A stretch of 20,000 nucleotides of DNA from Eremomyces bilateralis CBS 781.70 (GCA_010015585.1 ML975159.1), one strand, 5' to 3'; counted from the stretch's first letter, positions 364 to 20,000 are shown. The notes: generated by a model from the sequence alone, not told the origin. Numbers and translations are program-made.

Positions 364-1857
364 ATGTCGACACCCCATCCAAGCTCCCAGTCTGTGCCGT
401 CTTCATTATCACGTAAGATGATCTTTCCAATCAGGAAGGGGCTTGAGCTAATTCGGACCAGATCGCCTTGCGAGTGTTTCGGTCCTGGAGGCGCTCCAAA
501 CGGAGTCCCTTGCCACTACACCTCTATCAACGCAGCTACGTAGCCTGGACATTCGTCTCCATGATGGGAAGGACCCTCAATATTCTAGCGATGTGAGGAG
601 CGGAGGCTTGCCGCGCAGGCAGATAGCTGAGTTGTACGGACCTCCCGGCTCCGGAAAGACGGAGTTCTGGTAAGTATACTACGCAACACAGTTGACAGTT
701 CCTGACCATTCGACAGTATTCAGCTCGCAGCAAACGCTGTCTGTAATGGAGGGAATGTTCTTTGGATTGGTGCGAGACTATATCCGAGTCCCTTTTGGCA
801 TGATATCTAACATTTACTGCTATCAGATTGCAGCACGAAGCTATTTCGTCCTCGTTTCGACCAAGTCCTAGCAGCTGTGAATCCAAAGGCTTCTACAAGT
901 TTCCCAGGCCAGATGAAAGAGCGAGGGGCCGGACTTCGCCATCTAGCGACGCCGTCGCTTGCGCATCTTCTTAGCATTATCAAACGCCCTCCTTCACAAT
1001 TGGGTCTGGAGAAGAAGAGTCTCATGATACTCGAGTCGCTATCTACAGTTGTGGACCTAGCATATCAGCGCCTCACTAAGGAGCAGGAGAAGGAAAAGAA
1101 GAAGGATGGGGCTTGGCGAGGAAGCCGGAAATACGCTGTGCTCAATGACGTCGCATCTTCACTCAGCAAAATCGCTGCTATTCATAATATTGCCATCGTC
1201 ATCACAAATCAAACCATAACGCGTATTACGGGAGGTGGTCGAGCTCTGCTCTGTCCATCAATATCAGGACCGGAATGGGAGAACTGCATATCGACGAAGA
1301 TGGTAGTGTTTAGAGACTGGGGTCGTAAAAGAGCCACCTCACAGGGCAATGGTGAAGATGAAAAAGTTGGCGGTGTGCATGTCATTGGACTTTTGAAAGC
1401 CCGTGGAGAGAGATTGGACCAAAACGGCCGTTTTGGTGCTGTAATTCCGTTCGTCATTCACGAGGTGGGCCCCCTCCCTTTGCTGCGAATCCGAAGATCA
1501 AAACTAAGTGTACAACAGCATGGAATTGAAGAAGTCGACTTACAACCATCTGCCATGCCACTGGCTATGCCGCTTTCGCCAACGAGGCCATCCACAAGAG
1601 TTCTGGCGGACGTGATACCCGACTCGGAGGATGAGCTTGGATCGGACGGAGATTTCGATTGGTTCGAAGAGGCGGACTTTGCAATGGTTACTGACGAACC
1701 GAGTGAGCAGGAGAAGGATGCTAGCCAGGAAGATCGCGGAGAGGGCAGGAAAGAACAAGCCGGCTTCGCAATGTTGGCTGGCGAACCAAGTGGGCAGGAG
1801 AAGGATGTCGGTCAGGGGGATAACGGAGAGGGTATGGAAGAAGAAGCGGTGACCTGA
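364..1857 (+). CDS. rad55: Rad55-like Rad51/RecA-family paralogue (DNA repair). Exons 364-412, 462-669, 717-769, 827-1464, 1519-1857; the last intron is tentative
   Basis: Manual splicing with GT-AG introns 413-461 (GTAAGA..GCTAAT..CAG), 670-716 (GTAAGT..CTGAC..CAG) and 770-826 (GTGCGA..CTAAC..CAG) gives one continuous frame. The product contains SHRLASVSVLEAL, GGLPRRQIAELYGPPGSGKTEFC (Walker A), NVLWIDCS, LMILESLS (Walker B-like), HNIAIVITNQ and an acidic tail with VIPDSEDE. The RecA-fold assignment is firm; Rad55 specifically rests on recalled motif similarity. Confidence 0.85.
1672..1845 (+). repeat. Two-copy 87-bp (29-aa) tandem duplication in the Rad55-like C-terminal tail
   Basis: 1672-1758 encodes ADFAMVTDEPSEQEKDASQEDRGEGRKEQ and 1759-1845 encodes AGFAMLAGEPSGQEKDVGQGDNGEGMEEE. 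The two DNA copies are colinear and share GCAGGAGAAGGATG. Confidence 0.9.
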
Positions 1858-5195: not shown

Positions 5196-6762
5196 TCACT
5201 CCCGGTCGCCTCCCAAAAACCCATTTCCTAACCCTTGGATGTTGGGTAATGGCAATTTCCTCTGACTGCCTTCCGATCGCCCGATGATCTCGCTGATCGA
5301 CATGCCTATGGTGCCACTTTCCCGCGGCACGTATGGACTCGGACCCTCGGCGTTCGGCTCCAGCGGTGCTAGCGCAGGCGGCGGCATCATCGCGGGTTGT
5401 CCGAGGCTGTTGAATCCGGGGATCAAGTGGTCTCGATTGAACGCCGGCTGCGATGGAGACGTGCTGCTCGGATGGAGGTGCGAAGGATTAGACCCGGGAG
5501 GATGTTGGTGCTGGAGGGAGAGGTGGCGGATGGTCGGCAGTGTGAGCGCTTCGTTCGGAGGGAAGTTGTAGTGGTAGTTTGGACGCAGGCGGGGTGAGTG
5601 GGCGGGCGTGGCGAGCGGAGTGTGGTCGGGGGTCGGAGATGTCGAGGAGTGAGAGAAAGAGGGGGATGGAGGGGCGGTGGAGTAAGGAGACGACGGGCGA
5701 GATCGCTTGCTTCGGTGCGCATAGGGGTCGAGTGTGGGGAATGGATGGGGATCGTACTCATGCGAGTGCGACCGGGACATCGGCTGTGAGGATGGGGCGG
5801 TCGAAGGGTGTTGACTTGAGTGCGAGCTGTATGCGTACTGTGCAAGAGAGGTCGGACGAGAGGAAGAGGAGAGTGAGTAGAGGGAAGTCGAGCTGGATGG
5901 GCCGCTTGAGAGGAAGTTGTATGGACGGTTCGAGGCGCTTGACCCTGCATTGGTTCTTCCATCCCGTTCTACTTGCGAAGCAGCAGTTGCAAGCATGTTG
6001 ATGTCGAGATGTCGTTGCATAGAATTCGGGCTGTTCCCTTGGCTCTGCGATCCGTGAGGCCGGTTGAGATGGGAGAAGCCAGCGGCATTGGATGCATACG
6101 ATGCGAAGGAGTGCGGAGGAGAGACGTCGGGAGATGCGATGTTCGACGGTGGAGCGGAACGAGAGATCGTTTTCGGCGGAGGCGGCATCATGCGTGGGAT
6201 TCCATTCGCATCCATCCCCGAGTTTTGAGCCGCGGCAGCGACAGCAGCAGCGGCGGCATGTTGTTTGTTCCCTCTCCGGGAGTTGGGGTTGTTGTGAATT
6301 CTCGAGTGACGAGTCAATTCGTCGGAGCGGGAAAAGCGTTTCAAGCAACCCGGATACTGGCATGCATGAGGTTTTTCGCCGGTATGTGTCCGGATATGAC
6401 GAGTCTGGTGCTCCAGACGGTGAAAAGCCTTGTCACACAGGGGACATTTGTATGGTCGAGGTAAATCCTGTCTAGGTTCCTCCATGGTTTGGGACGATTT
6501 TGGTTGCAGCATTGAATATATCAGACTGATGTTCGATGCTGCCATAGGTTGTTGGATGGTGGAGGAGGATGTGGAGGATGGAGATGTAGATGTTGGGGAA
6601 GCACTCGGGGGAGAGGCGGAAATAATATCCAAAAAACCTCTCGGCACTGGAGCCGGCGATGATGATTCGCGGCCCACGGCTTGCTGGGGTTCGGAAGAGA
6701 TGGCCGAATGTGGGTTGAGAAAGATTTCGAAAGGCGGCGGGCAAATTCGATGATGCTTGCAT
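5196..6762 (-). CDS. creA: C2H2 zinc-finger carbon catabolite repressor CreA/Cre1. The full-length form (521 aa) needs a +1 frameshift at 6720-6722; the first in-frame ATG at 6545 gives 449 aa
   Basis: Two Mig1/CreA fingers ([62 protein letters not shown]), an Ala-rich tract, the conserved block [29 protein letters not shown] and the C-terminal [19 protein letters not shown]. No intron in the body. The 5' end is discussed in the findings. Confidence 0.97.
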
Positions 6763-7450: not shown

Positions 7451-10400
7451 CATCAAACGATTCTGAGTCGCCGAGGGGGCGAGGCGTTTGGGGTGTGCTG
7501 GACGTGCTGGATCTGCTGGACTCCCCGCGAACCAGACCTGCGTGGGCAGCAATGAGACAGGGCCAGGGGGGAGACTGGCTGTGAGCCGCGGATCGTAGGC
7601 AGGGGACTCGGCTGAGGGGGGAAAGATGGGGTTTTCCGGGGATTTCTGTTGAATCCAACCAAGGGCATTTAGAAAGGCCGAAATCTTCGGTAAGGGGATC
7701 CTCAGTGCATATCGGTACGGAGCTGACCTGACTTCTTAAGATACATCCGGCTATTTGCTCCTAGCCTCCTACGCTTCCTCCTGGCAAAATGGAACGTGGG
7801 GAATGCTGAATGCATCGCTTAACCGCCCTGGCGATAGATACCGTTTGCCCCGAAAAGGCCAATTCTGAAGACACTGAACCTCAACTTCCTCAAGACCGCA
7901 AGGCTGACTGGACGAAAAGAAAAGGGATGAAACATTGCTCCTCACTGCTTTTTCCCTGTCGTGGAAGTCACTGGTCTGGGTTTTCCGTTCAATCTCCTGT
8001 CGTATCTGGTCGTATCGTATCTGGTCGTTCTCATTCGATTGCGGAACACTCCATGAAGCAGCGAAGAGTGTCAGACCAATCGTTCGTGCCATCCGGGAAC
8101 TGCAGGGAGATCCTCTAGGCTGGAGGAGCGGGATCACCACATACTCGATGGGGGATGAGCTGCAAGGAATGAAGCAATCTAATTAATATTATTCTAAAAG
8201 CAGTACCGGATGCAAGGCATCGTATGTATTAAAGATATCATTTCGCTTCACCGTGATTCGACTGTATAGACCCCCCCCAACCATTCATTATTGCTACATA
8301 TCACGGCTTGATTCTTGATGAAGGCAGCATCTGAAGCTCAACAATTCGGTATATTACAGCCAAGCCAAGACTCCTCCGTACTTCCGTCCCCCGTGCCTCA
8401 CCAGTCTCCCACCGCAAGCGGCAAGCCACATCAGGCGCCATCAAATATCAACCCAAATGTACGGTGAGATCAGAGATGTGATCCGCCATCCCTGCATTGA
8501 GCGGGTTTGTAGAGGCTAGAGTGGAAGTGGATGGGGATGTGGGGGCGCCACGCCTCATCGCTCCGGTTTAATAAGGGGAACCCGAATTTTCACCCCGATT
8601 TTGCTCCGAAGGTGAAAATCCTCGTCTCTGCTGCGTCAGCATCGCATCCATGTGTCGCCTCACTGGAAGTCGGGTACAGGCCCTCCCGTCGTCGAGATAC
8701 GTCGGTAGATCCCTAAGTTAGTCATATCGGTCGAGATATCCTGCAACGCACATCTGTCTGGTGCAGCTCAACGTACAGGTATCTGATATCATGCATCTAT
8801 TTCCCGGTGATCGACACCTGTCCTTTAATGTCATCGATAAAGGATGTGTTCTCAGTTTGACAGATTGTCAACCGATTTTCGATCTGATCGCAAAAGCACG
8901 CCACATCGACAGGCTCCTCCTCGGCCTTGGTCTGGTTCCTCATCTTTGGTTCTGAAATCTGAATACATTGACGAGCCAATGCGCTGGATGAGTCTGTCCC
9001 ACTTTTCCCAGCCAGCCGCAACAGCTGTCCATGAATCTGACACCGGGGAAAGCTCTTGGACCGTTGTCCGTTGGAAATGGAGACGGGAACTGGCGTTCGC
9101 CGATGGATTCTGTCGCCATAAGAGGGGCCAGGGTCGCCCGATATGAAGTGTGGTCGTGTGTATGGCGAGACGATGATGTGATTTTCGGGCTGAATTGGTG
9201 GTATTTTGCTGTTCCGCGGTTAGTGATGGCCGATGCGAGACTGAATCGGCCGACTGGGACAAGGGCTATTTGCTCACCCCATCATCCATGGCCTCGATTT
9301 TAATCCTTGCTGGTATTCTTTTGCTGTAGTAAATGATTCAACGGTTTCCATTTCGTGATCCAGCACGTTTCCGATCGCGATTCCTGATGTGAATTATCCA
9401 CGCTGAACTCCATGATGGGATACCCCAAGCCGTTTGATACTGCCGAAGACATTCCCACAATCGATCCTCCTACATAATCGTCCTACACTGCAGGCTGACT
9501 CCCAGATTGTCAGCAGCAACCGCCGTCCAGGGGTGCATCCAACATCCGGACCAGTACTACCATTCGCAAGGCTGAGCGGCTGATGATGCAGCCAGTAGCA
9601 AGTCCGGGGCCCCAGAAGAATTCCGTTTTTCGCGCCAGCGCCCGCTACCTACCTTATCTAGATTCTAGACTAGAAATGCGGAGCGCGCAGCGGAAAAAAA
9701 GGGCCTGAACCGAAGAATACCGTTTCCCGTCCGATAAGCGCTTGGTTTGAATTAGCCGGAAACATCCAGGACGGGAATAACCAGCAGCCTAGGGATTATA
9801 GATAACGTTTGGTTGCATTTCTTGCCCTGTACGGAGTACGAGGACCTGGATAGCATGGTCAAATTGGGTGGCAAATTCGAACCGGTACGGCCAAATTCGG
9901 TTGCTCACTGGCATGGTTGCATTCTGGTTTCAAACAGATTGCTGACCTGGAGTCGACTGGCGATCATTTCGAGAACATCGCTGGGGAATTCCCCGCATTT
10001 GTGACTGCCTGAAAACGACATCAAACTGAAGTGCAGGTGAACCAGATGCTCATAGCCTCAAACTGGTTGGCAAAGATAAGACGTCCACTGTTGTCTCTCC
10101 ACCTGATGGTTTATCATATGAAGACCCCACACGCCCTTACTTGATGTCCTTTCCATTGCCACTCTCTGTCCACACGTCAACAGGTTTGGTCCTCCAGCTG
10201 CGGCCTCCGAGCAATGGAGCATGCCAATGGCAGTTTCTATATCCAATCCGATTACAATACTGGGTTTTGCTTTCATCAAATCCACGACGGAGTGACTCCT
10301 GTCGCGAAGCTGACAGACGTCTCCACAATCCACCAGGGCTTCCTTTTGAAATTCGTCATAATAGACATGAAGGACGGCCGCTATTCGATAGACCAAAGAG

Positions 10401-10988
10401 ATGTTGATATTTCAATGACCCAGGCACGGACGAATGGTCCCTAGTCAAATTCCTTGACTATTGTTGATATTAGATGTTGAAAGGGAGAACGGGTTCCCTG
10501 ATGCGGAGCAATAGGATGTCGTGTACGGAGTAACAACCGTATTCAGCCGCTGAGTCTACCCGTCTGGTTCCTTCGCTGGGTATTACGAATCATCTCCTTA
10601 ATTGTCATATCCGTTTTAGTTTATAATCTTCAAGTTGCACCTGTCTTCCAGATATGGTGAACCCCTTTCCCCGCACTTTTATCTTAAAGTTTATGTACAC
10701 CCCGACTTCCCCGAGCCATTGGTCTTGCACGTGCATGTGCCTTGTCGTGATACCACAAAGTCAAATCCCACCTAATCCTCCCTATCCAACTTCCCTCCAA
10801 TCTCCGATCGGTGCTCGACGCTCGTTCTGCGTACTGCCGATGAAGTCCGCTTAAAACAAAGTACCGATCATACCCAGCGAGGCTAACATTCCTTCGCTGT
10901 CTGACCCTTCGGACACAGTCCGATAGGTGGACAGTTACAAAGTTGAACAAGGCAAGACCTGACTGTATTCATGAATGGGGGGGGTGGC

Positions 10989-11113
10989 GTGGGGGGTCGT
11001 TACCCCAACAAATTCCCAACCCCAGCTCCAAATCTCTCCAGTAGTCACTGGTCACCACAGTCAGCCCAGATTCGGCTGGGCCGGTGGGGAAAGGCAGGCG
11101 ACCCCCACAAATT
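10989..11113. promoter_or_regulatory. Cluster of five CreA/Mig1 consensus sites (SYGGRG)
   Basis: GTGGGG at 10989, CCCCAG at 11020, CTCCAG at 11036, GTGGGG at 11084 and CCCCAC at 11103. The last has a Mig1-type AT flank (AATTTGTGGGG on the minus strand). Confidence 0.4.
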
Positions 11114-13366
11114 CGGGGCAAGAGCGGGCCTTTCCCCGTGACTAGCAACTAAATCGGACTGGTTGGGCTGTCATGACTGCCTGGGGCATCAATCAGTTTT
11201 ATACTTTTATCCACGTCGGTTGGCTTCAGTGTGTCCCATCACTCATTCCCATCAGGATCTTTCTCCTGCAGTGTCCAGTTCTCGTTGAGTCCGATATGTG
11301 TTCTTGTCGTCATTGTTACATTGGGCACAGCATGATGCGACAGAATTTCGTCGCGGAAACAACCGAATATCACCAAGCATCAGGAAATTAGCAAGCAATA
11401 ATAGGCCAGGGGTGACTGTCTGCAACGAGCTAGTCTGGATATCTGCAACAAATCAGCAACTGGATTAGACATGATAGGAAGGTAACACGTCCAACTGGCG
11501 AGCATGCTTCCTTCTTACAACGACGATGATGACGCTATTTCCGTATGGCGGTAATTGATGGTGTTATACAATCTAACATTTTGGTTGAGGATCCAAACTC
11601 CCAATCCATTTGGCTTGCAGAAGTCTTGCATAAGGGCAAGAACCCACCCTCATCTCCGGATCCCGATATGAGGACATCCAAAACCTGATGTTGAGAATTG
11701 AGATGCAGCGCGGGAAAACACATGTCCGATCGCCCCGTTCCGCATCCCCTTTTAGTGTGGAACGCAGTGCAGGGAGGAGTCGTGGGGTATATAGTGCTGA
11801 CGACTGGAAACGCAGTTGCATCGCGATATGGCATCAATGCAATGTGATCAGGTGCTAAACAGATCATTGGAACTATAATGACACCGCAGCTGCGGTTGAG
11901 AAATTGTGTCCAATATCTGCATCGAAAGGGATGGCCAGCTTGACCATTCCTTAGTCGCGCCGCTCCGTGATAGCTGTTCTGGGGCTTGGGGGTGTGCATA
12001 AACTGCATATTCCCGCTGACCGACACTTTGCTTCTCCAGATTATCGGGTTGCTAACATGGAGTGGCGCAGGGATTACGATTCGATTACGTCCTAATCTGG
12101 AGAAACCGTCAGGGCTGGGGACGGGATCGGATGGTTATCGAAATTGATCTATCCCGTCACAAGAACTGTGTTCGCGCTGCTCCTTTGCCGCTCTGAACTG
12201 GCGTCGCCGATATATCGAAAATAGGAGTGATAGGTCTCAAGAGTCAAGAGACTCTCTGCATGTGTAGTGAACGATCAACTTGTAGAATAAGACGGATAAC
12301 TACCTATTGGCGAGACGGCTTGGAAAATCATTTCCCGGCTCTAAGCGTATGGCGATCATACAATTCTACTGTGCTATGCCTGTTTAGCAGGCAGCAGTCT
12401 AGGGCGCTCCAGAAATAATTCCCTATTGTTCTCGATCGGAAACTTGTATACGCTCTATTTGGATTTTGGATGATCCTCGACAAGATAACCTGGCATCACA
12501 GAGCGGCTAAAGAGTTAGGTTACGTCCTCTCTCTGGGGAAAGTGTGGGGTGAGCCAAGATTAAATGGGCTCATGTAGTAATGGCATCTTACCAGATCATC
12601 GATGCCTAATGTCTATTCTTACGGTACGCAGTATCTACAATCGTGCCGATATTCAACACGTATGAGCACTTTCCACTACCATTCTCTCTTCTCCATTTGC
12701 CTATGAGTCGCTCAACCTCAACTGGACGGCCAGCTGACATTGAAGCTAAGACCGTAGAGCTGAAGCATGTCCGTGGACTCCGTATCTGACTCGAACTGCC
12801 AAGCATTATGGCTGAATCGCGAGATACGAATTACGATTCAAGCCAGTAGTTATACGTTTTAAGTAGACAAGGGATCAAAGTTAACTTCGTCTGGGGCGGA
12901 GACTGGAAGTACCGGTAATTAGTGCACGCTTCGTAGGGGACGAAGTCAGAGAGACCATACTAACAGAATGGATTAATCGACGACCGACAATTCCAGCCTG
13001 TCGTCCGAGAATGGTCATGGGATACCAGCGAACCCGAATCGCTAGTTGAGGCTCTTTCATGAGTTGATCGGAGGCGATATATAGGCTCATCGCATTTCGT
13101 CTCACTTGCTTCATTACCCCCAATTTGGATATCATATTTCCGGCGATCATTTATAGTTCTCCAGAGTCAAGGCTAACATCAATAGTTCAGAAATCAGAAT
13201 CAATGAATCATTCACTTAGATTCGAAACCGATGCCGATCTACCCCAGACGGTCTCCTCGCCCTCACGTCACACGACAATGAACAGGAGGACGTGTGAGAT
13301 GAATAGAGGTACGTACCAGCCGAGGTCGGGAACTTTCGGGGCGGTGGTCCGTCGACATCAGTTCGA

Positions 13367-13396
13367 CCCCCAATCCCCCATCCCCCCAATTCCCCC
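13367..13396 (-). other. G-quadruplex motif G5-N4-G6-N2-G5-N3-G5
   Basis: The plus strand reads CCCCC AAT CCCCC AT CCCCCC AATT CCCCC. Confidence 0.7.
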
Positions 13397-16340
13397 AACC
13401 ATCGGCTACTCCACATTTTACGCCTCGGCGGCCGGCTCCCGCTGTCGCTTTAGCAAAAGATGGCTTAGCGCATCCCCCCATCCCTCATTTCCTCCAGCGT
13501 TCCAGAAGCCAGATCTCGTCGGGACGAGGCCTTTCCTTTGCACGAGCCTCGCAACCCATGATGATGATTGGCGTGAGTCTGGCACTTTGGAGGCCTTTGT
13601 CCCGGGTTGGGGTCTCCCGGAGCGGCGGGACTCACCCGCGGGAGAGAAGGGGGAGAGGATTGGTACCTTTCAAGTTTCATCTTTTTTCACTGGAGAGGTA
13701 TCCGTACAACCGTACATCCATTCATGCAATATGTTTGCCCCTGAAGCCGGTATCCGGGCTTGGTCCAGATTCGACGATCGACAAGAGGCATAAGAGATCA
13801 TAGACTGGATTTCTCATATGTTGAGATTTGCATTAATATTCGATTCGGCTGCCTGGCATCTCACTAGCTGCATATCGTAGGTCAGGACTCGGGACCGAAA
13901 TCACATGTAGGTTTTCTTATCCATCATGGTTGATGCCTTCCACGGTCTCTACACTAAGCCATCCATATCAATTTGCATTATTATTGCATTCATCGCCTTA
14001 TTATTTCAAGCACAAGGATACAAACACATGAAGTTCTTATCACCCGAAGCCACTGGCCAATGAAAAGAGCCGGAGCTTCCTGCGTTCCCGGCCAATTTTC
14101 CGTCCCAGATCATCTTAAACCCGTTCCGTATGGGGTGCCGACCCGGAAAACTTTTGCCCTAGGATCGGCCAACATGGCATTTTGTATCCATCAATTTTGG
14201 ATCAGACCTCGGAAATTGTAGACGCATATTCGGATGTAAATCGGGTAGGTCCTATGCGGAAGAAAAAATACTGCATACCATTTTCGTGCCGATGGACACT
14301 GAGCACCGGTGGATACGGAAGACTGTTGCTTAATTTCCTCATATCCAGTGGCCAATACTGCCTGCAGCCTGCAATTATGGCGCTATCGCTACCACTGTGG
14401 ACTATCGGTGAGATGACTCCATTTATTCGTCTCTATTCGAGTGCGGATGTCAGGTGGCCATCAGTGATCAGCCTGAAAATTCGATTTGCCTTTCGCCTTC
14501 CGCCCTCCTGCGTCGGTTCAATGGAGATGGAAATAAGGATTATTGCCGAAGGTGCCCCTGACAAGCGGTAAATTTTCATTTTGAGCCTCATTGTAATATC
14601 CCTGTTATTCCCGGCCGGCTCATCGATATTTCTTCTCTGCCGAGTAATCACGCAGCATCATTCAATGAGTACTACAGTGCTATCCCGAGAAACTCAATTT
14701 TCTATCCCGAATCTCCTTTGTTACATGTCTCGCATTGTTGAGTTGGATGCTCTCTGCATGTCGGGCTGTAAACCTCTCGAATTCATTTCTAATCCTCGGT
14801 TGACATCTGTTCCCAACAATCACCTCGAACCTTGTATTCATGCCGGTTCATGACGTCTCATGCTCTACTCCTCGGATGATGACTTTACATCCAATTGGAA
14901 GATCCGTCCTGGTAACGTGATAGGTCGCCGCGCCGGAGTCGAACCAAACCCAATTTCGCCGAGTTGCCGTGCCTCGGGATCTACCTCATATAAACTAGAG
15001 CGGCTGGCCAGGCTTCCAGAATCTCCTTGGAATCTTGGCCGGTATGTCATCACTAGTAGAGTAGTGGGGGACTTCTTCTAAGGCGGAAAAAGCTTTTAAA
15101 GGGCGTGTGAGGTTTTTGCGGTTTGCCAAGAATCTCAGGCATTCCCCTGGGAAGTTTGCGCCACGCTGGCAACCATTTAGGGCGTGGGGCCTTGATTTAT
15201 ATTTGATAGTGAGAAGATAGTGGTAGTAGAGGTTCGTCACCATAGATGAGATCCGGACTTATCCAAGCTACTACCTACCTATCCAGGACTACTGTGGCAT
15301 TTCTTCATTCAAAGTTTCTCTCTCAACGCCCACCTGCGGAGTTTGTTGAGGCTTGGACTTAGAAAAAAAATTGCCAGCAGTCTTCAAAGAGTGGTACAAT
15401 ATCTGGGGAAGCGGCAACAAAGCCTTCCCCGCAATCTGCGTGCGACGGTTGAACGGCCCTTGGTAGCCGTCGGTCAGTGTGCCCAGTTTGTGCCATTCGA
15501 TATCCAAGAGCATCGAGCACCGTACCTTTTCGTAGGACTCATGTTCGAAGAACTTTCCTAAAACATGATGTGACGTTGATTAATAGTTTCGTCTGTTGAT
15601 TGTGAATAGGGGCAAATAGCAACTTGATGAAGATGACAAGAGATAAGCTGCTGATGCCTGATAAGGACGTTAAAGCCGCCATCAGATGTGGAGTTGGTGG
15701 AGCACCTAGCACAATAGTGACGAATATGAAATCCCAACGCCAACATCAAGGGGGTGCTTCAGCGCTTCTTTAACCAGAGTGCCAGACTCATTGGCATGAT
15801 CCGGAAAAAAGGAGGAATGGTGATATCCAAGTTAGCGTCAACAACAATGCTGCCTATTAATGTTACCTTACCATGCATGCCTCAGGAGTCGGGAGATAAT
15901 ATTTTCATGCAAAAAGTTTAACTTAAGACATTAAAGCTCCCGTCACTGAGGCTCGGATCGAGATTGGGATGCCTTTTCGTTCGAGGAAGACGTCGGCAAC
16001 CCTCGGCGCACTGGAACTCATTTTCCAATTCGCATCCCGACTATTACCGTCCTGAATGGAGTCAAGATTCTGGCTTGAAAAATAAAAGATACTACCACGA
16101 CGGTATTCCGCAGAGTTGATGGAAGTTCCAGTGGAATACGCATTCCAGAGGCGCAGCTCTATACAGTGCACAGTGCGTACATAGGTAGTAGGTACGGAGG
16201 CTTGATCCGAACAAGTCAATCGTACTCCAACAAATCATGAGAGTAGACTTCGAATGGTAGACCGATAATTAAACGGGTGGCGCATCCCTTGGTATCGTAT
16301 TGTTACTATTCAACTCTCATGAAAAGCAGTTGCGCATGTA

Positions 16341-18196
16341 TCCGTGCCCCATGACCGCCCCAAAACCTCAATTTTACCATCATCTTCAAATCTATACCAC
16401 CAAACATGTCTAAACGCGTCAAATATTCAGAGGAGACTATACAGAAAGCAGTCAAGGAGGCTACAGACCCCAAAAAAAGCAGGAAAACCTGTCAATATTT
16501 CAGCATTGGCGCGTGAGTTCCAAATCAGCCAGTTCGTCCTTCAAAGGCCGCCTTCAAGGAAAAACATCCTATACCAATCGTTCTCCGTTCGTACAAGCCA
16601 CCAAACTCGATCAGCTACAAGAAAAGGCTCCCTTAACTTGGATCTACCAGCTTGATAAGTGGGAAGCGCCTCCTACACCTACAGAAATCGAAGCGTGCGC
16701 CAACTCTGTACATACTCCGAAGAAAACGCGCTCGATACAACCCAGCCACCACCCCACGTTAGCAAGAACTGGAAATACAACTTTATTAAGCGCCATACCC
16801 CTCCGCTTATCAACCAAAAACCAGTTAAAGACGACCGCCTACGTGCTGAGGATCTTGGACATATACAGCATTGGTTTCAACTCCTTCAGGAGCAGATTCA
16901 AGAGCATGGAATCGAGGCCCGGAATATATATAATTTCGACGAAAGTGGCTTCCGCCTTGGTGAAGGGAAGCGCCAAAAAGTAGTCAGTTTCCGACCGGGG
17001 GCAAAACGAGGCAGTCCTAGTACGGAGTCATGCGAATCGGTTACGGATATCGAGTGTATCGCTGCTGATGGTTTCGTTCTCCCGCTGTACTTTATCCTAA
17101 AGGGCGAGAACCATCTTGAACGATGGTACGAAAACCGGGTTCCAGACGATTACCGTATCAATATCTCTAAGTCTGGGTGGTCAAACGACCTTATTGCCTT
17201 CGATTGGATCCAGCATTTCCATCGGTATACAAGACACCGGGCTAAGAAGGGGAAACAACTGCTCTTGATGGATAACCACGCTTCGCATCTTACCCATGAG
17301 TTCATTCAATTCTGCGAAAAAGTTGATCTTATTCTTTTCCCATTTCCTCCGCATACGACCCATTTCCTTTAGCCGCTTGATGGGAAGCCGTTTCTTGCGT
17401 TAAAACACTACTTCCGGCAGACAAATACGCATATCTCACGGTGGGGATTCGACGCAGCGGACAAGGCCTCATTCCTTACGGAAATGCCCCGGATCCGCCA
17501 AAATGCCTTCAAATCGCGTACGATTCGACACGCTTTTAAAGAGAGGGGCCTTTGGCCATGCGATCCTGAGCAGATTTTGCCAACCCTTCGGCAACAGGTT
17601 GACCAAGAGGTAGAGGAGCTTCACATATTCAATGGCTCGCCCCCAACGTCAAGTATTACGGCGACACCGACCGTATCTCCACCAAATACTATTCGTACGG
17701 TACGCCGGAAACAACAGAAGATCATGAATACGCCTGAGGCCCTACTTTCTAGCCGGAAATACCAACGTCGCGTTCACCAAGCTACAAACTCATTGATCAA
17801 GGCGGTCGAAGAGATCGAGGCGTATAAGGAGTCCGTTTCAGCCACACAACGCCAACAAACCAAAAAGAGTCGCCGCCAGGTTAAAACAGGACTTAGCCAG
17901 ACCGGTGCTTCGTACGTTAGTGAGGCGAAACGCCATATCGAGGCGCGTGGTCAGAAGGAGCGGGAGGCGGTAATTAGGAAGGCACAGCGGGACTGGCGGC
18001 GGCAAAAACAACAGGAAAATCAGCAGGAACCATCTCCTATACTCGATCAACCTACTAGTACGGAGGATCTCGGTTTTTATATCGATTTACATCCTGAGTT
18101 CTGATATATAGATGATAGTAGTGAAATTGGACTTTTGGCGTGAGTTTGACTTTAGCACCAACAACCGGAGGTTGTGGGGCGGTCATGGGGCACGGA
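16341..18196 (+). mobile_element. Fot1/pogo-family (Tc1-mariner superfamily) DNA transposon, complete, 1856 bp, copy 1
   Basis: Left end TCCGTGCCCCATGACCGCCCCAAAACCTC (16341-16369) and right end GAGGTTGTGGGGCGGTCATGGGGCACGGA (18168-18196) form an inverted repeat matching at 28/29. TA target duplication at 16339-40 and 18197-98. Internal DDE_1-type transposase; size typical of the family. Confidence 0.96.
16406..18104 (+). pseudogene. Disrupted pogo/Fot1 transposase (N-terminal HTH, CENP-B-like HTH, DD35D catalytic domain)
   Basis: Fragments: MSKRVKYSEETIQKAV.., NISALAREFQI, KLDQLQEKAPLTWI, VSKNWKYNFIKRH, IYNFDESGF, SKSGWSND, LLLMDNHASH, FPPHTTHFL*PLD; 35 residues separate the 2nd and 3rd Asp. 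Frameshifts at about 16472-78 (A7 run), about 16540 and about 16708-26. In-frame TAG at 17370-72 replaces the Q of QPLD. Confidence 0.93.
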
Positions 18197-18578
18197 TATG
18201 TTCCAAGCGCTGCTCGCATTAACAACTACATTTGTTTGCACAAGGGATCTATTATGGCGAGCTAGACCCTATGTCAAGTGGACAGGCAACGGCCAGGCTG
18301 ATTGAGGAGAGATAGTGCTCGTTAAACAGAAAAAGATCAAGTACATGAGTTGGAATCTGGTAGTGCGGCATTGATGTGTAAGGAATCAAGAATGAATCGA
18401 CTTCTTCCAAGGTAACTTTGGGTTGCTGACTTGATCTGAGCAGTTCATCGACGGAGTATCTCCCTTGTTTGACCTTTCCCCAAAGCCTCTAAGACGACAG
18501 AGAGCCGTGACATCGACGTACGAGCGATAGCCGCATAAATTGAAACGCTGTGAACAATATGAACTCCAAAAACACTCG

Positions 18579-19610
18579 TTACGCGCGTAAGTTTCTCGTG
18601 ACATGAACGACAATCTTACCCTTCGTTCGCTGGGTCTTGAGTCTTTCATATGCTTTGGGGGTATCCTCCCACTCGAATGTCTGATGAATGACAGGCTTTA
18701 CTTTGCCTTCCGTGATCCATCTCCCGATCTCGGCCAGATGTTCGGGATTGCATTGGGTAAGGTAAGGGTGATAGGGCCTCTTCCCGCCTCCAAGAAAAGA
18801 TGGCCTCAACAATCTCCCCGCTATGGACAGACCAAAGGAAAATATAGAACTGACACCAACTTGAAAGAAATGCCCATCTGGCTTCAAGAAATGGTGGCAC
18901 TCCTCGTACAGATTTTCGGGCGTCCCAACATTGTCGACGACAACATCAAAGACTTCCCCTTTCTCCTTGAGAATTTGGATGATGCTACCCTTCGTGTAGT
19001 CCAAGACCTCGTCAGCCCCCAGCTCTTTGCAAAATTCGATGTTTGCGGTCGAGCAGGAAGTCGTCACATGCGCTCCGATAGCCTTTGCGATTTGGATACC
19101 CCAGGTTCCGCAACCTCCACTACCTCCATTCAAGAACACTCTGGCACCTTGCGTTTCCCTCGCATGAGGTACGATGGTTTGGTATGCCGTGAGACCTGCA
19201 GTTCCCACTGTCGCAGCATCGTCCGGATCCACCCCGTCTGGCAAGGTTGCGATGCCGTCCACATCAGCAACAACATACTGTCCCAGGGTTCCATATTGCC
19301 TGTTGTTCTTAAATCGTCCGAAGACGACTTGTCCCATACGGTGGGTATCGTTGGCCGTCGGGATCGCCACGATCTTACCGCAGAAATCGACGCCTGGGGA
19401 TGCCGGGGTGCGGATCAGGAGGCTCGTAGGAAAGATCTCGGCGAGCTTGTAGTCGACGGGATTCAACGCCGCAGAAATGACTTCGACAATGACTTCATCC
19501 TTCGAAAGACCTTCCTTGCTTGGAGGAGTTGCGGTTTCAGTGAAATAGAGATTCTTCTCCATACCACCCGTGGTGGTCGTGAAGAGCCAGGCTTTCATGT
19601 GCTCATCCAT
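18579..19610 (-). CDS. Medium-chain dehydrogenase/reductase, NADPH:quinone oxidoreductase-like (zinc-independent, RTN4IP1/Yim1-like), 343 aa, intronless
   Basis: MKAW start, EVIVEVISAALNPVDYK, SPGVDFCG, GTLGQYVV, AATVGTAGLTAYQ, Rossmann motif VFLNGGSGGCGTWGIQIAKAIGA, LGADEVLDY, FDVVVDNVG, GKVKPVI..RTKGKIVV. No GHE zinc motif. First ATG at 19610. Confidence 0.93.
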   Translation of the reverse strand: MDEHMKAWLFTTTTGGMEKNLYFTETATPPSKEGLSKDEVIVEVISAALNPVDYKLAEIFPTSLLIRTPASPGVDFCGKIVAIPTANDTHRMGQVVFGRFKNNRQYGTLGQYVVADVDGIATLPDGVDPDDAATVGTAGLTAYQTIVPHARETQGARVFLNGGSGGCGTWGIQIAKAIGAHVTTSCSTANIEFCKELGADEVLDYTKGSIIQILKEKGEVFDVVVDNVGTPENLYEECHHFLKPDGHFFQVGVSSIFSFGLSIAGRLLRPSFLGGGKRPYHPYLTQCNPEHLAEIGRWITEGKVKPVIHQTFEWEDTPKAYERLKTQRTKGKIVVHVTRNLRA

Positions 19611-19842
19611 TGTTGATGATGAATTTGAAGGTATTGATGTCCAAATAAAGGTTTCTGGCGGTGGATTTTCTAAACAGCAATTTTTAGAGAGCGAGTCTCG
19701 CTCAAGGGACTGCGCTTTCCTGACATTGCTAGAGATTGCGCCATGTGTCAAGCTCTTTGGGTTGCACCTATAATTAAAAAAGGGTTAACATTCAATCTGA
19801 ATTATTGGTAATCAGGTGCAATTATTAATGCGCTGCGGCATA

Positions 19843-20000
19843 TCCGTGCCCCATGACCGCCCCAAAACCTCAATTTGATTACCATCATCTATATATCAGA
19901 ACTTGGGATGTAAATCGATATAAAAACCGAGATCCTCCGTACTAGTAGGTTGATCGAGTATAGGAGATGGTTCCTGCTGATTTTCCTGTTGTTTTTGCCG
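19843..20000 (-). mobile_element. 3' end of a second, inverted copy of the same Fot1/pogo transposon (runs off the window)
   Basis: TA at 19841-42, then the TIR TCCGTGCCCCATGACCGCCCCAAAACCTC. About 19884-20000 is the reverse complement of 18000 to about 18116 with 2 mismatches. 19896-20000 on the minus strand encodes RQKQQENQQEPSPILDQPTSTEDLGFYIDLHPKF* (copy 1 ends HPEF*). Confidence 0.95.

Follow-up and report, generated by a model that had tools for sequence, protein, structure and literature searches.

A tail-to-tail pair of Fot/pogo transposon copies with swapped ends around an oxidoreductase gene of Eremomyces bilateralis

Tn10 and Tn5 are bacterial composite transposons, and a sequence-only reading of a locus of the ascomycete fungus Eremomyces bilateralis CBS 781.70 claimed a similar architecture there: two inverted copies of a pogo/Fot element bracket one intronless oxidoreductase gene, and their outer ends could move the whole as a cassette. 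The locus raises the question of whether the two copies act as the carrier of the gene or came to lie around it by another route. The window, that is, the whole stretch of DNA analysed, comprises 20,000 nucleotides (GCA_010015585.1 ML975159.1) and corresponds to G000:C11:175280-195279 in an assembly (G000) of 26.9 Mb in 95 pieces.

Layout of the unit and its surroundings

The unit measures 5,378 bp and consists of two TA-flanked copies of a Fot/pogo DNA transposon (1,856 and about 1,876 bp) in tail-to-tail arrangement, separated by a spacer of 1,642 bp that contains a single gene of the MDR (medium-chain dehydrogenase/reductase) superfamily. From left to right, it is composed of the outer left TA target-site dinucleotide (16339-16340) beside the element end, copy 1 on the plus strand (16341-18196), the inner left TA between copy 1 and the spacer (18197-18198), the spacer (18199-19840), the inner right TA between the spacer and copy 2 (19841-19842), and copy 2 on the minus strand, whose 3' end (19843-20000) is the part that falls within the window. 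The far end of copy 2 is found at G000:C11:196997 (equivalent to window position 21718), where a long 5' end of subfamily B is followed by TA. Copy 2 is therefore full length, and the cassette size of about 5.4 kb, which had been proposed on that proviso, holds. About 1.2 kb in the middle of copy 2 reads N. Runs of N also occur within the family copies L010, L017, L018, L020, L026 and L055, and they are read as assembly gaps in repeats.

Contigs from two DNA runs, X1 and X2, show zero differences at the three junctions inside the window. They cover the left flank into the short end of copy 1 (to 16368) and the entire spacer with both inner ends, although both runs possibly derive from the source sample and hence do not constitute independent support. 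An artefactual copy 2, which the sequence-only reading had named as a danger to its own proposal, is ruled out by these junction contigs together with the two-copy read depth presented below. When the spacer is used to search G000, the only matches are the spacer itself and a 145-bp stretch with 71% identity in a paralogue of the MDR gene. Both flanks of the unit are single-copy as well, and a genome-wide search for the whole unit and its gene found no second unit in this assembly. With 15-30 copies evenly spread over 26.9 Mb, 0.03-0.12 pairs this close would be expected, so that the closeness of the two copies is unusual, not extreme. An imperfect inverted 11-mer, which is unexplained, is present near both spacer ends.

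The gene (18579-19610, minus strand) is intact and intronless and codes for a 343-aa oxidoreductase of the quinone/enone reductase, RTN4IP1-like type. It leaves 230 bp of spacer upstream and 380 bp downstream, as had been read from the sequence. The protein carries the domains ADH_N, ADH_zinc_N and ADH_zinc_N_2, and its predicted activity is likely to be the NADPH-dependent reduction of quinones or enones, since RTN4IP1 (2vn8), a ripening-induced protein (4ida) and quinone oxidoreductases are nearest to it among proteins of solved structure. The detoxification role suggested from the sequence would be hypothetical. The gene exists in one copy, and a paralogue with 47% identity lies on C1. Its best 119 homologues share 48-58% identity with it and every named one belongs to Pezizomycotina; its GC3 is 0.58, compared to 0.57 for the neighbouring Lon protease gene and 0.61 for creA. 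In a quick tree of 121 proteins it falls among fungal sequences on a long branch, and no sister is firmly placed. Judged by its sequence, the gene looks native and of an ordinary ascomycete quinone-reductase type. A horizontal origin was considered and discarded, neither the homologues nor GC3 giving any sign of it. The intronless state, which the sequence-only reading had mentioned, is normal for this gene family and no sign of capture, because 70 of 80 homologue loci likewise consist of one open frame.

A third run, X3, whose listing gives RNA only as a guess, is read as RNA because it skips a 62-nt GT..AG intron that is retained in the DNA runs; the alternative that X3 represents a rearranged second isolate was rejected, since the skipped segment is an intron. 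One X3 contig spans positions 18171-19750, across the MDR gene, which is probably transcribed. The parts that X3 does not cover were left out of the evidence.

The gene order of the region is creA (5196-6545, minus strand; C2H2 fingers), about 9.8 kb devoid of Pfam matches, copy 1, the MDR gene, copy 2, about 1.6 kb, and Lon on the plus strand. Most named relatives of the Lon protease, at 78-79% identity, are Dothideomycetes. A gene interrupted at a junction, from which the ancestral order could have been fixed, was sought in the flanks, and none of 71 open frames (out of 79 listed) gave a Pfam match; the flanks gave no Rfam match either. With respect to other fungi, creA and Lon may also be neighbours in Aspergillus, which a literature search did not confirm. 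In Sarea both are found on the same contig, at a distance of 33 accessions, and in Aplosporella on different scaffolds. The MDR homologue is on a scaffold other than that of CreA (Trematosphaeria, Lophiotrema, Periconia) or Lon (Cladophialophora) in all four named species checked, where placement was judged through accession numbers and the relatives are only 39-55% identical, possibly not orthologues, and too distant for gene order to count. Among 80 metagenome loci with MDR homologues, 24 of them of at least 15 kb, none has a pogo transposase, Lon, CreA or any other of the neighbours nearby (threshold E 1e-4; the controls worked), though these relatives, too, are so distant that the absence does not decide the matter.

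The transposon family and the shared body of the two copies

A DNA search of the genome with the element gives 85 matches. The end pattern has 39 exact matches against 0 for a reversed control, which demonstrates the presence of terminal inverted repeats, and TA adjoins all 41 family ends inspected, including the four of the pair. The copies L005-L007 are identical and each contains an intact gene for a 563-aa transposase, in which PF03184 (DDE_1, E 6e-22) and PF03221 (HTH_Tnp_Tc5, E 1.2e-15) are recognised in L005; the transposase fragment of copy 1 retains PF03184 (E 3.5e-16). The catalytic residues of L005 are D176, D287 and D323, with the DD35D spacing of 35, in motifs chosen by eye after those of Fot elements. 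The TA duplication, the terminal repeats, both domains and DD35D bear out the family assignment made from the sequence alone.

Copy 1 is 93.8-95.1% identical to seven other complete copies. It bears no RIP signature, its TpA/ApT ratio being 0.87 versus 0.86 in the intact copies. Coverage of the family is high in the RNA-like run X3. Run X4 contains diverged relatives of the element only, and a search for a second isolate or close relative with this stretch gave none. Ends can be assigned to subfamilies by diagnostic tags, and in nine of the ten other copies with both ends read the same tag is present at both. The exception, L010, is a chimera: mismatched ends arise in lone copies too.

The reading frame of copy 1 is broken by insertions near 16467, 16542, 16707 and 16722, and by a premature stop at 17370. 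The readable part of copy 2 is identical to copy 1 over 506 bp, namely 411 bp on the 5' side, where the insertions lie, and 95 bp on the 3' side. Thus, the transposase of copy 2, whose possible integrity the sequence-only reading wished to see checked, carries the frameshifts of copy 1 in its visible 5' part. The bodies of the pair are about 6% distant from other family copies. In copy 1, 33 of 1,856 bp (1.8%) show private substitutions, which are absent from six other copies, and at this rate zero differences over 506 bp would have a probability of about 1e-4. Since the pair is aged, as these private substitutions indicate, and yet identical over 506 bp, gene conversion between the copies, recent or continuing, may be inferred.

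The hidden middle of copy 2 was examined through summed read depth, which is no copy number, in run X2, in which single-copy contigs have a depth of 225-257. Seventeen sites were used, taken from 40 rows out of 347, and four of them, with zero depth, are uninformative. Five sites in the part known to be shared give a depth of 432 (1.8 times single-copy), a single figure for all five controls. At 18117, where the copies are known to differ, it is 270 (1.1 times). Seven sites in the hidden part, scored for the allele of copy 1, range from 394 to 528 (1.6-2.2 times); six of them are private substitutions and the other is the stop (528). The unread middle is very probably also common to both copies, because depth at the hidden sites resembles that of the two-copy control and not that of the one-copy control. 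Both transposase genes appear to be broken, as judged for the middle of copy 2 from this depth.

Swapped ends and the history of the pair

The one sharp result concerns the ends of the two copies. The 5' end of copy 1 (16341-16369, plus strand) is a short form of subfamily A in which the subterminal repeats are deleted. It agrees fully (edit distance 0) with the 3' end of copy 2, likewise short with subfamily A alleles, and this short form occurs at 2 of 41 ends, exactly these two. The 3' end of copy 1 (18129-18196, minus strand) is a long form with the subfamily B tag, of the same type as the outer 5' end of copy 2; its edit distance to the latter is 13, against 39 to the 5' end of its own copy. 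Within-copy distances are 39 in both copies. At the last five diagnostic sites scored in its 3' end, copy 2 carries A-type alleles; copy 1 is B-type at these positions, and the body common to both copies is an A/B mosaic. Each inner end carries private changes together with alleles of a different subfamily. The description of the copies as near-identical is right for the bodies, wherever they can be read, and fails for the ends, which differ reciprocally. Read across the pair, the order of ends is short-long-short-long (copy 1, A at 5' and B at 3'; copy 2, A at 3' and B at 5'), and when the spacer is turned round in silico, the two ends of each copy match, as is the rule in the family. The unit consists of long, near-identical inverted repeats around a unique segment, and these repeats are recombinant, with reciprocally exchanged ends, provided that the assembled orientation is correct. 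The feature is real and of a known kind.

One parental element with two short ends (A) and another with two long ends (B), together with one crossover in the body, would give exactly this end order with the spacer inverted. That recombination between the copies could invert the MDR gene had been noted from the sequence, and it has become the best explanation: the locus probably results from two independent insertions that were homogenised by gene conversion and underwent a crossover that flipped the spacer. According to this explanation, A and B, members of one family, would have inserted independently and tail-to-tail, one 230 bp upstream and the other 380 bp downstream of an oxidoreductase gene that presumably already resided there. 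The inverted copies, of 1.85 kb and 1.6 kb apart, would then have recombined with each other, gene conversion rendering their bodies identical and spreading the inactivating lesions to both, and an odd number of crossovers would have flipped the spacer and swapped the inner ends, leaving the short-long-short-long order. The unit would act as an invertible segment bounded by inverted repeats and driven by host homologous recombination. Inversion of the spacer is probably neutral and a switch function seems unlikely, since the 230 bp next to the gene stay with it and the 1.8 kb of repeat beyond them hardly changes when the orientation does.

The case for the flip depends on the assembly, because short contigs cannot orient a spacer placed between identical repeats of 1.7 kb. 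For this reason, the insertions and the conversion might be real and the spacer never have been flipped, its orientation having been misplaced by the assembler and each copy having matching ends. The bodies are identical over about 1.7 kb, the middle of copy 2 is not resolved, every contig of the runs ends inside the repeat, and the in silico flip restores the usual end pairing. However, copy 1 is gap-free from the left flank to the spacer, gap sizes in other copies resemble scaffold estimates, which suggests that long-insert pairs would have oriented the spacer, and conversion over 1.7 kb makes accompanying crossovers likely on general grounds. Misorientation is thus an unlikely reading, although it is the least unlikely of the alternatives. 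Local hopping is known for Tc1/mariner elements and had been kept as a plausible alternative. If one of the copies were a recent daughter of the other, the identical bodies with their common lesions would need no conversion, and the proximity of the copies, above the uniform expectation, would be accounted for. However, a daughter keeps the ends of its parent, so that one parent yields short-long-long-short or the reverse, an order that a flip leaves unchanged, and cannot make the one observed; nor would a daughter show inner ends with private changes and alleles of a different subfamily. Local hopping fails, being already contradicted unless a conversion of an end from a third copy is added, and it is to be regarded as very improbable.

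The composite transposon of the sequence-only reading would demand that the pair captured the gene elsewhere, that the outer 5' ends were paired by a transposase acting in trans, which carried the 5.4 kb into one TA between creA and Lon, and that the unit now also flips internally, that is, all the steps of the best explanation plus one. TA is found at both outer ends, three identical copies with intact and apparently expressed transposase genes exist in the family, whose copies are heavily covered in the RNA-like run, so that movement would be possible in principle, and no homologue locus among those checked has the gene beside Lon or creA. Moreover, the bases beside TA mirror each other over three positions in the outer flanks and over two in the inner ones, while the four cross pairs show 0. 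A mirror of three bases exceeds those of all 12 true family sites (two of which reach two bases). Of 276 random flank pairs, 6 reach three bases and 28 reach two. The mean mirror is 0.58 bases at true sites versus 0.47 in random pairs. Since true sites are barely more symmetric than random pairs, the mirror weighs little and gives a weak hint at one ancestral site or at a different history, and TA, being invariant, cannot mark one site. No second copy of the unit or of the spacer exists in G000, subterminal repeats are missing from the outer left end, and the transposase genes on both sides are dead. A Pack-type element inside the pair was also looked for, and neither a second cassette copy nor repeated spacer ends were found in the genome. 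With both transposase genes broken, the spacer single-copy and no pogo transposase near any of the 80 homologue loci, the claim of a gene-moving cassette is not upheld, and the composite reading, not supported by these data, is decidedly improbable, more so than misorientation and less so than a local hop. There is also a circle route, in which a circular DNA molecule made of the gene with element B inserted in it entered element A by recombination, followed by an inversion of the second copy between the terminal repeats of that copy. Inversion between the ends of an element is documented for bacterial IS (PMC3004938). This route yields the observed end order, and the outer and inner flank pairs would be the former sites, as the mirrors of three and two bases hint. 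However, three rare steps are needed, and apart from the mirrors, which weigh little, nothing speaks in its favour, so that it is scarcely credible.

Comparison with known systems

The Fot family, within the pogo superfamily, comprises fungal DD35D transposons, according to PMC7386202. The family described here resembles these Fot elements in the 563-aa transposase with DDE_1 and HTH_Tnp_Tc5 of its intact copies, in DD35D and in the TA duplication. Its terminal repeats of about 80-100 bp are also like those described there for the FotC clade. By contrast, the two copies of the pair are dead and chimeric and their ends are swapped.

Two element copies do flank unrelated DNA, and a cargo-like gene between two copies, with outer ends that could pair in principle, recalls Tn10/Tn5, in the definition given by PMC9977792, and the Ac/Ds macrotransposons of maize. 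However, the unit differs from composites in lacking an active transposase in either copy, any evidence of movement and a foreign or selected cargo. In addition, the macrotransposon, as cited in PMC3239180, uses external 5' and 3' ends, whereas here both outer ends are 5'. No working transposase is found in either flanking copy, intact ones being present elsewhere in the genome, and the unit occupies a single site, its spacer and both flanks being single-copy in G000. With these two defining features tested and absent, the unit does not belong to the composite-transposon class as PMC9977792 defines it. A literature search found no natural fungal pogo composite, which does not prove its absence; in the passages of PMC4672557 available, a role is proposed for Fot5 near fungal invertase genes and no inverted pair is mentioned. 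Were the composite reading true, it would mean that ordinary pogo elements are able to move host genes in fungi, which today is attributed chiefly to Starships.

The inversion proposed as the best explanation has known counterparts. In rice carrying two inverted Ds copies at a distance of 1.1 kb, the intervening segment was inverted in 33 of 300 plants (PMC3239180). Both cases involve inverted DNA-transposon copies about 1-2 kb apart, an inverted segment and the conservation of both elements. The rice case is an experimental hAT system in which the event was watched directly, while the present one is a natural fungal pogo pair recognised through end haplotypes, with long-term homogenisation. 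The human FLNA/EMD inversions, as presented in PMC3961182, share with it a unique gene segment between near-identical inverted repeats and an unbroken gene; here the repeats are transposon copies of 1.85 kb and the inversion is read from one assembly. As best read, the locus would be a tidy natural example of inverted transposon copies that evolve in concert and flip a gene. With respect to method, identical bodies need not reflect a recent hop, and subfamily end tags can record a past inversion in a single genome.

Recent activity and possible copying between ends in the Fot/pogo family

Elsewhere in the assembly, three loci of the Fot/pogo family to which the two inverted copies belong, L005 (C26), L006 (C17) and L007 (C2), are identical to one another and each carries an intact 563-aa transposase. 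Their frameshifted sister L008, on C52, is 99.4% identical. As judged from these sequences, L005-L008 are a subfamily that has been active recently and without RIP.

Among family loci L002-L020, private subterminal changes tend to be common to both ends of one copy; for instance, L020 carries the same 36-bp deletion at its 5' and 3' ends. Such sharing suggests that sequence has been copied from end to end within single elements. L010, a lone copy, is a chimera of subfamilies A and B. The family also includes TA-flanked mini-remnants that retain end sequence only, two of 30 bp (L054, position 175; L057, position 198) and one of 57 bp (L058, 252-308), which probably arose by internal deletions via microhomology.

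A 1,869-bp contig of run X4, from organism B, contains pieces about 80-85% alike to the Fot/pogo element of the window, and no likeness to the flanks of that element was found in X4. On this comparison, the contig is a related element in a different organism.

Transcript-like coverage upstream of creA

A 5.9-kb contig of X3, a run read as RNA, spans 9500-14368 and about 1.1 kb farther left on the minus strand, covering a gene-poor region upstream of creA (5196-6545, minus strand). It skips a single 62-nt GT..AG intron (12903-12964), and Pfam and Rfam searches of the region gave no match. As a candidate transcript lying upstream of creA, this contig may represent either a long non-coding RNA or a very long leader. 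Another X3 contig, unspliced and of lower depth (50), adjoins copy 1 (16341-18196) at 14683-16259; comparison of its open frames with Pfam revealed no recognisable frame.

Spacer ends and the left of the window

An imperfect inverted 11-mer lies close to each end of the single-copy spacer (18199-19840), at about 18215-18225 and 19821-19833. A search of the assembly did not find it elsewhere as part of a larger repeated element, and the inverted arrangement may be due to chance.

The 314-aa open reading frame at 913-1857 (plus strand), without a match in Pfam, may be the last exon of a recombination-protein gene, to judge by its resemblance to one. It contains an 87-nt tandem duplication (1666-1839) coding for acidic repeats.
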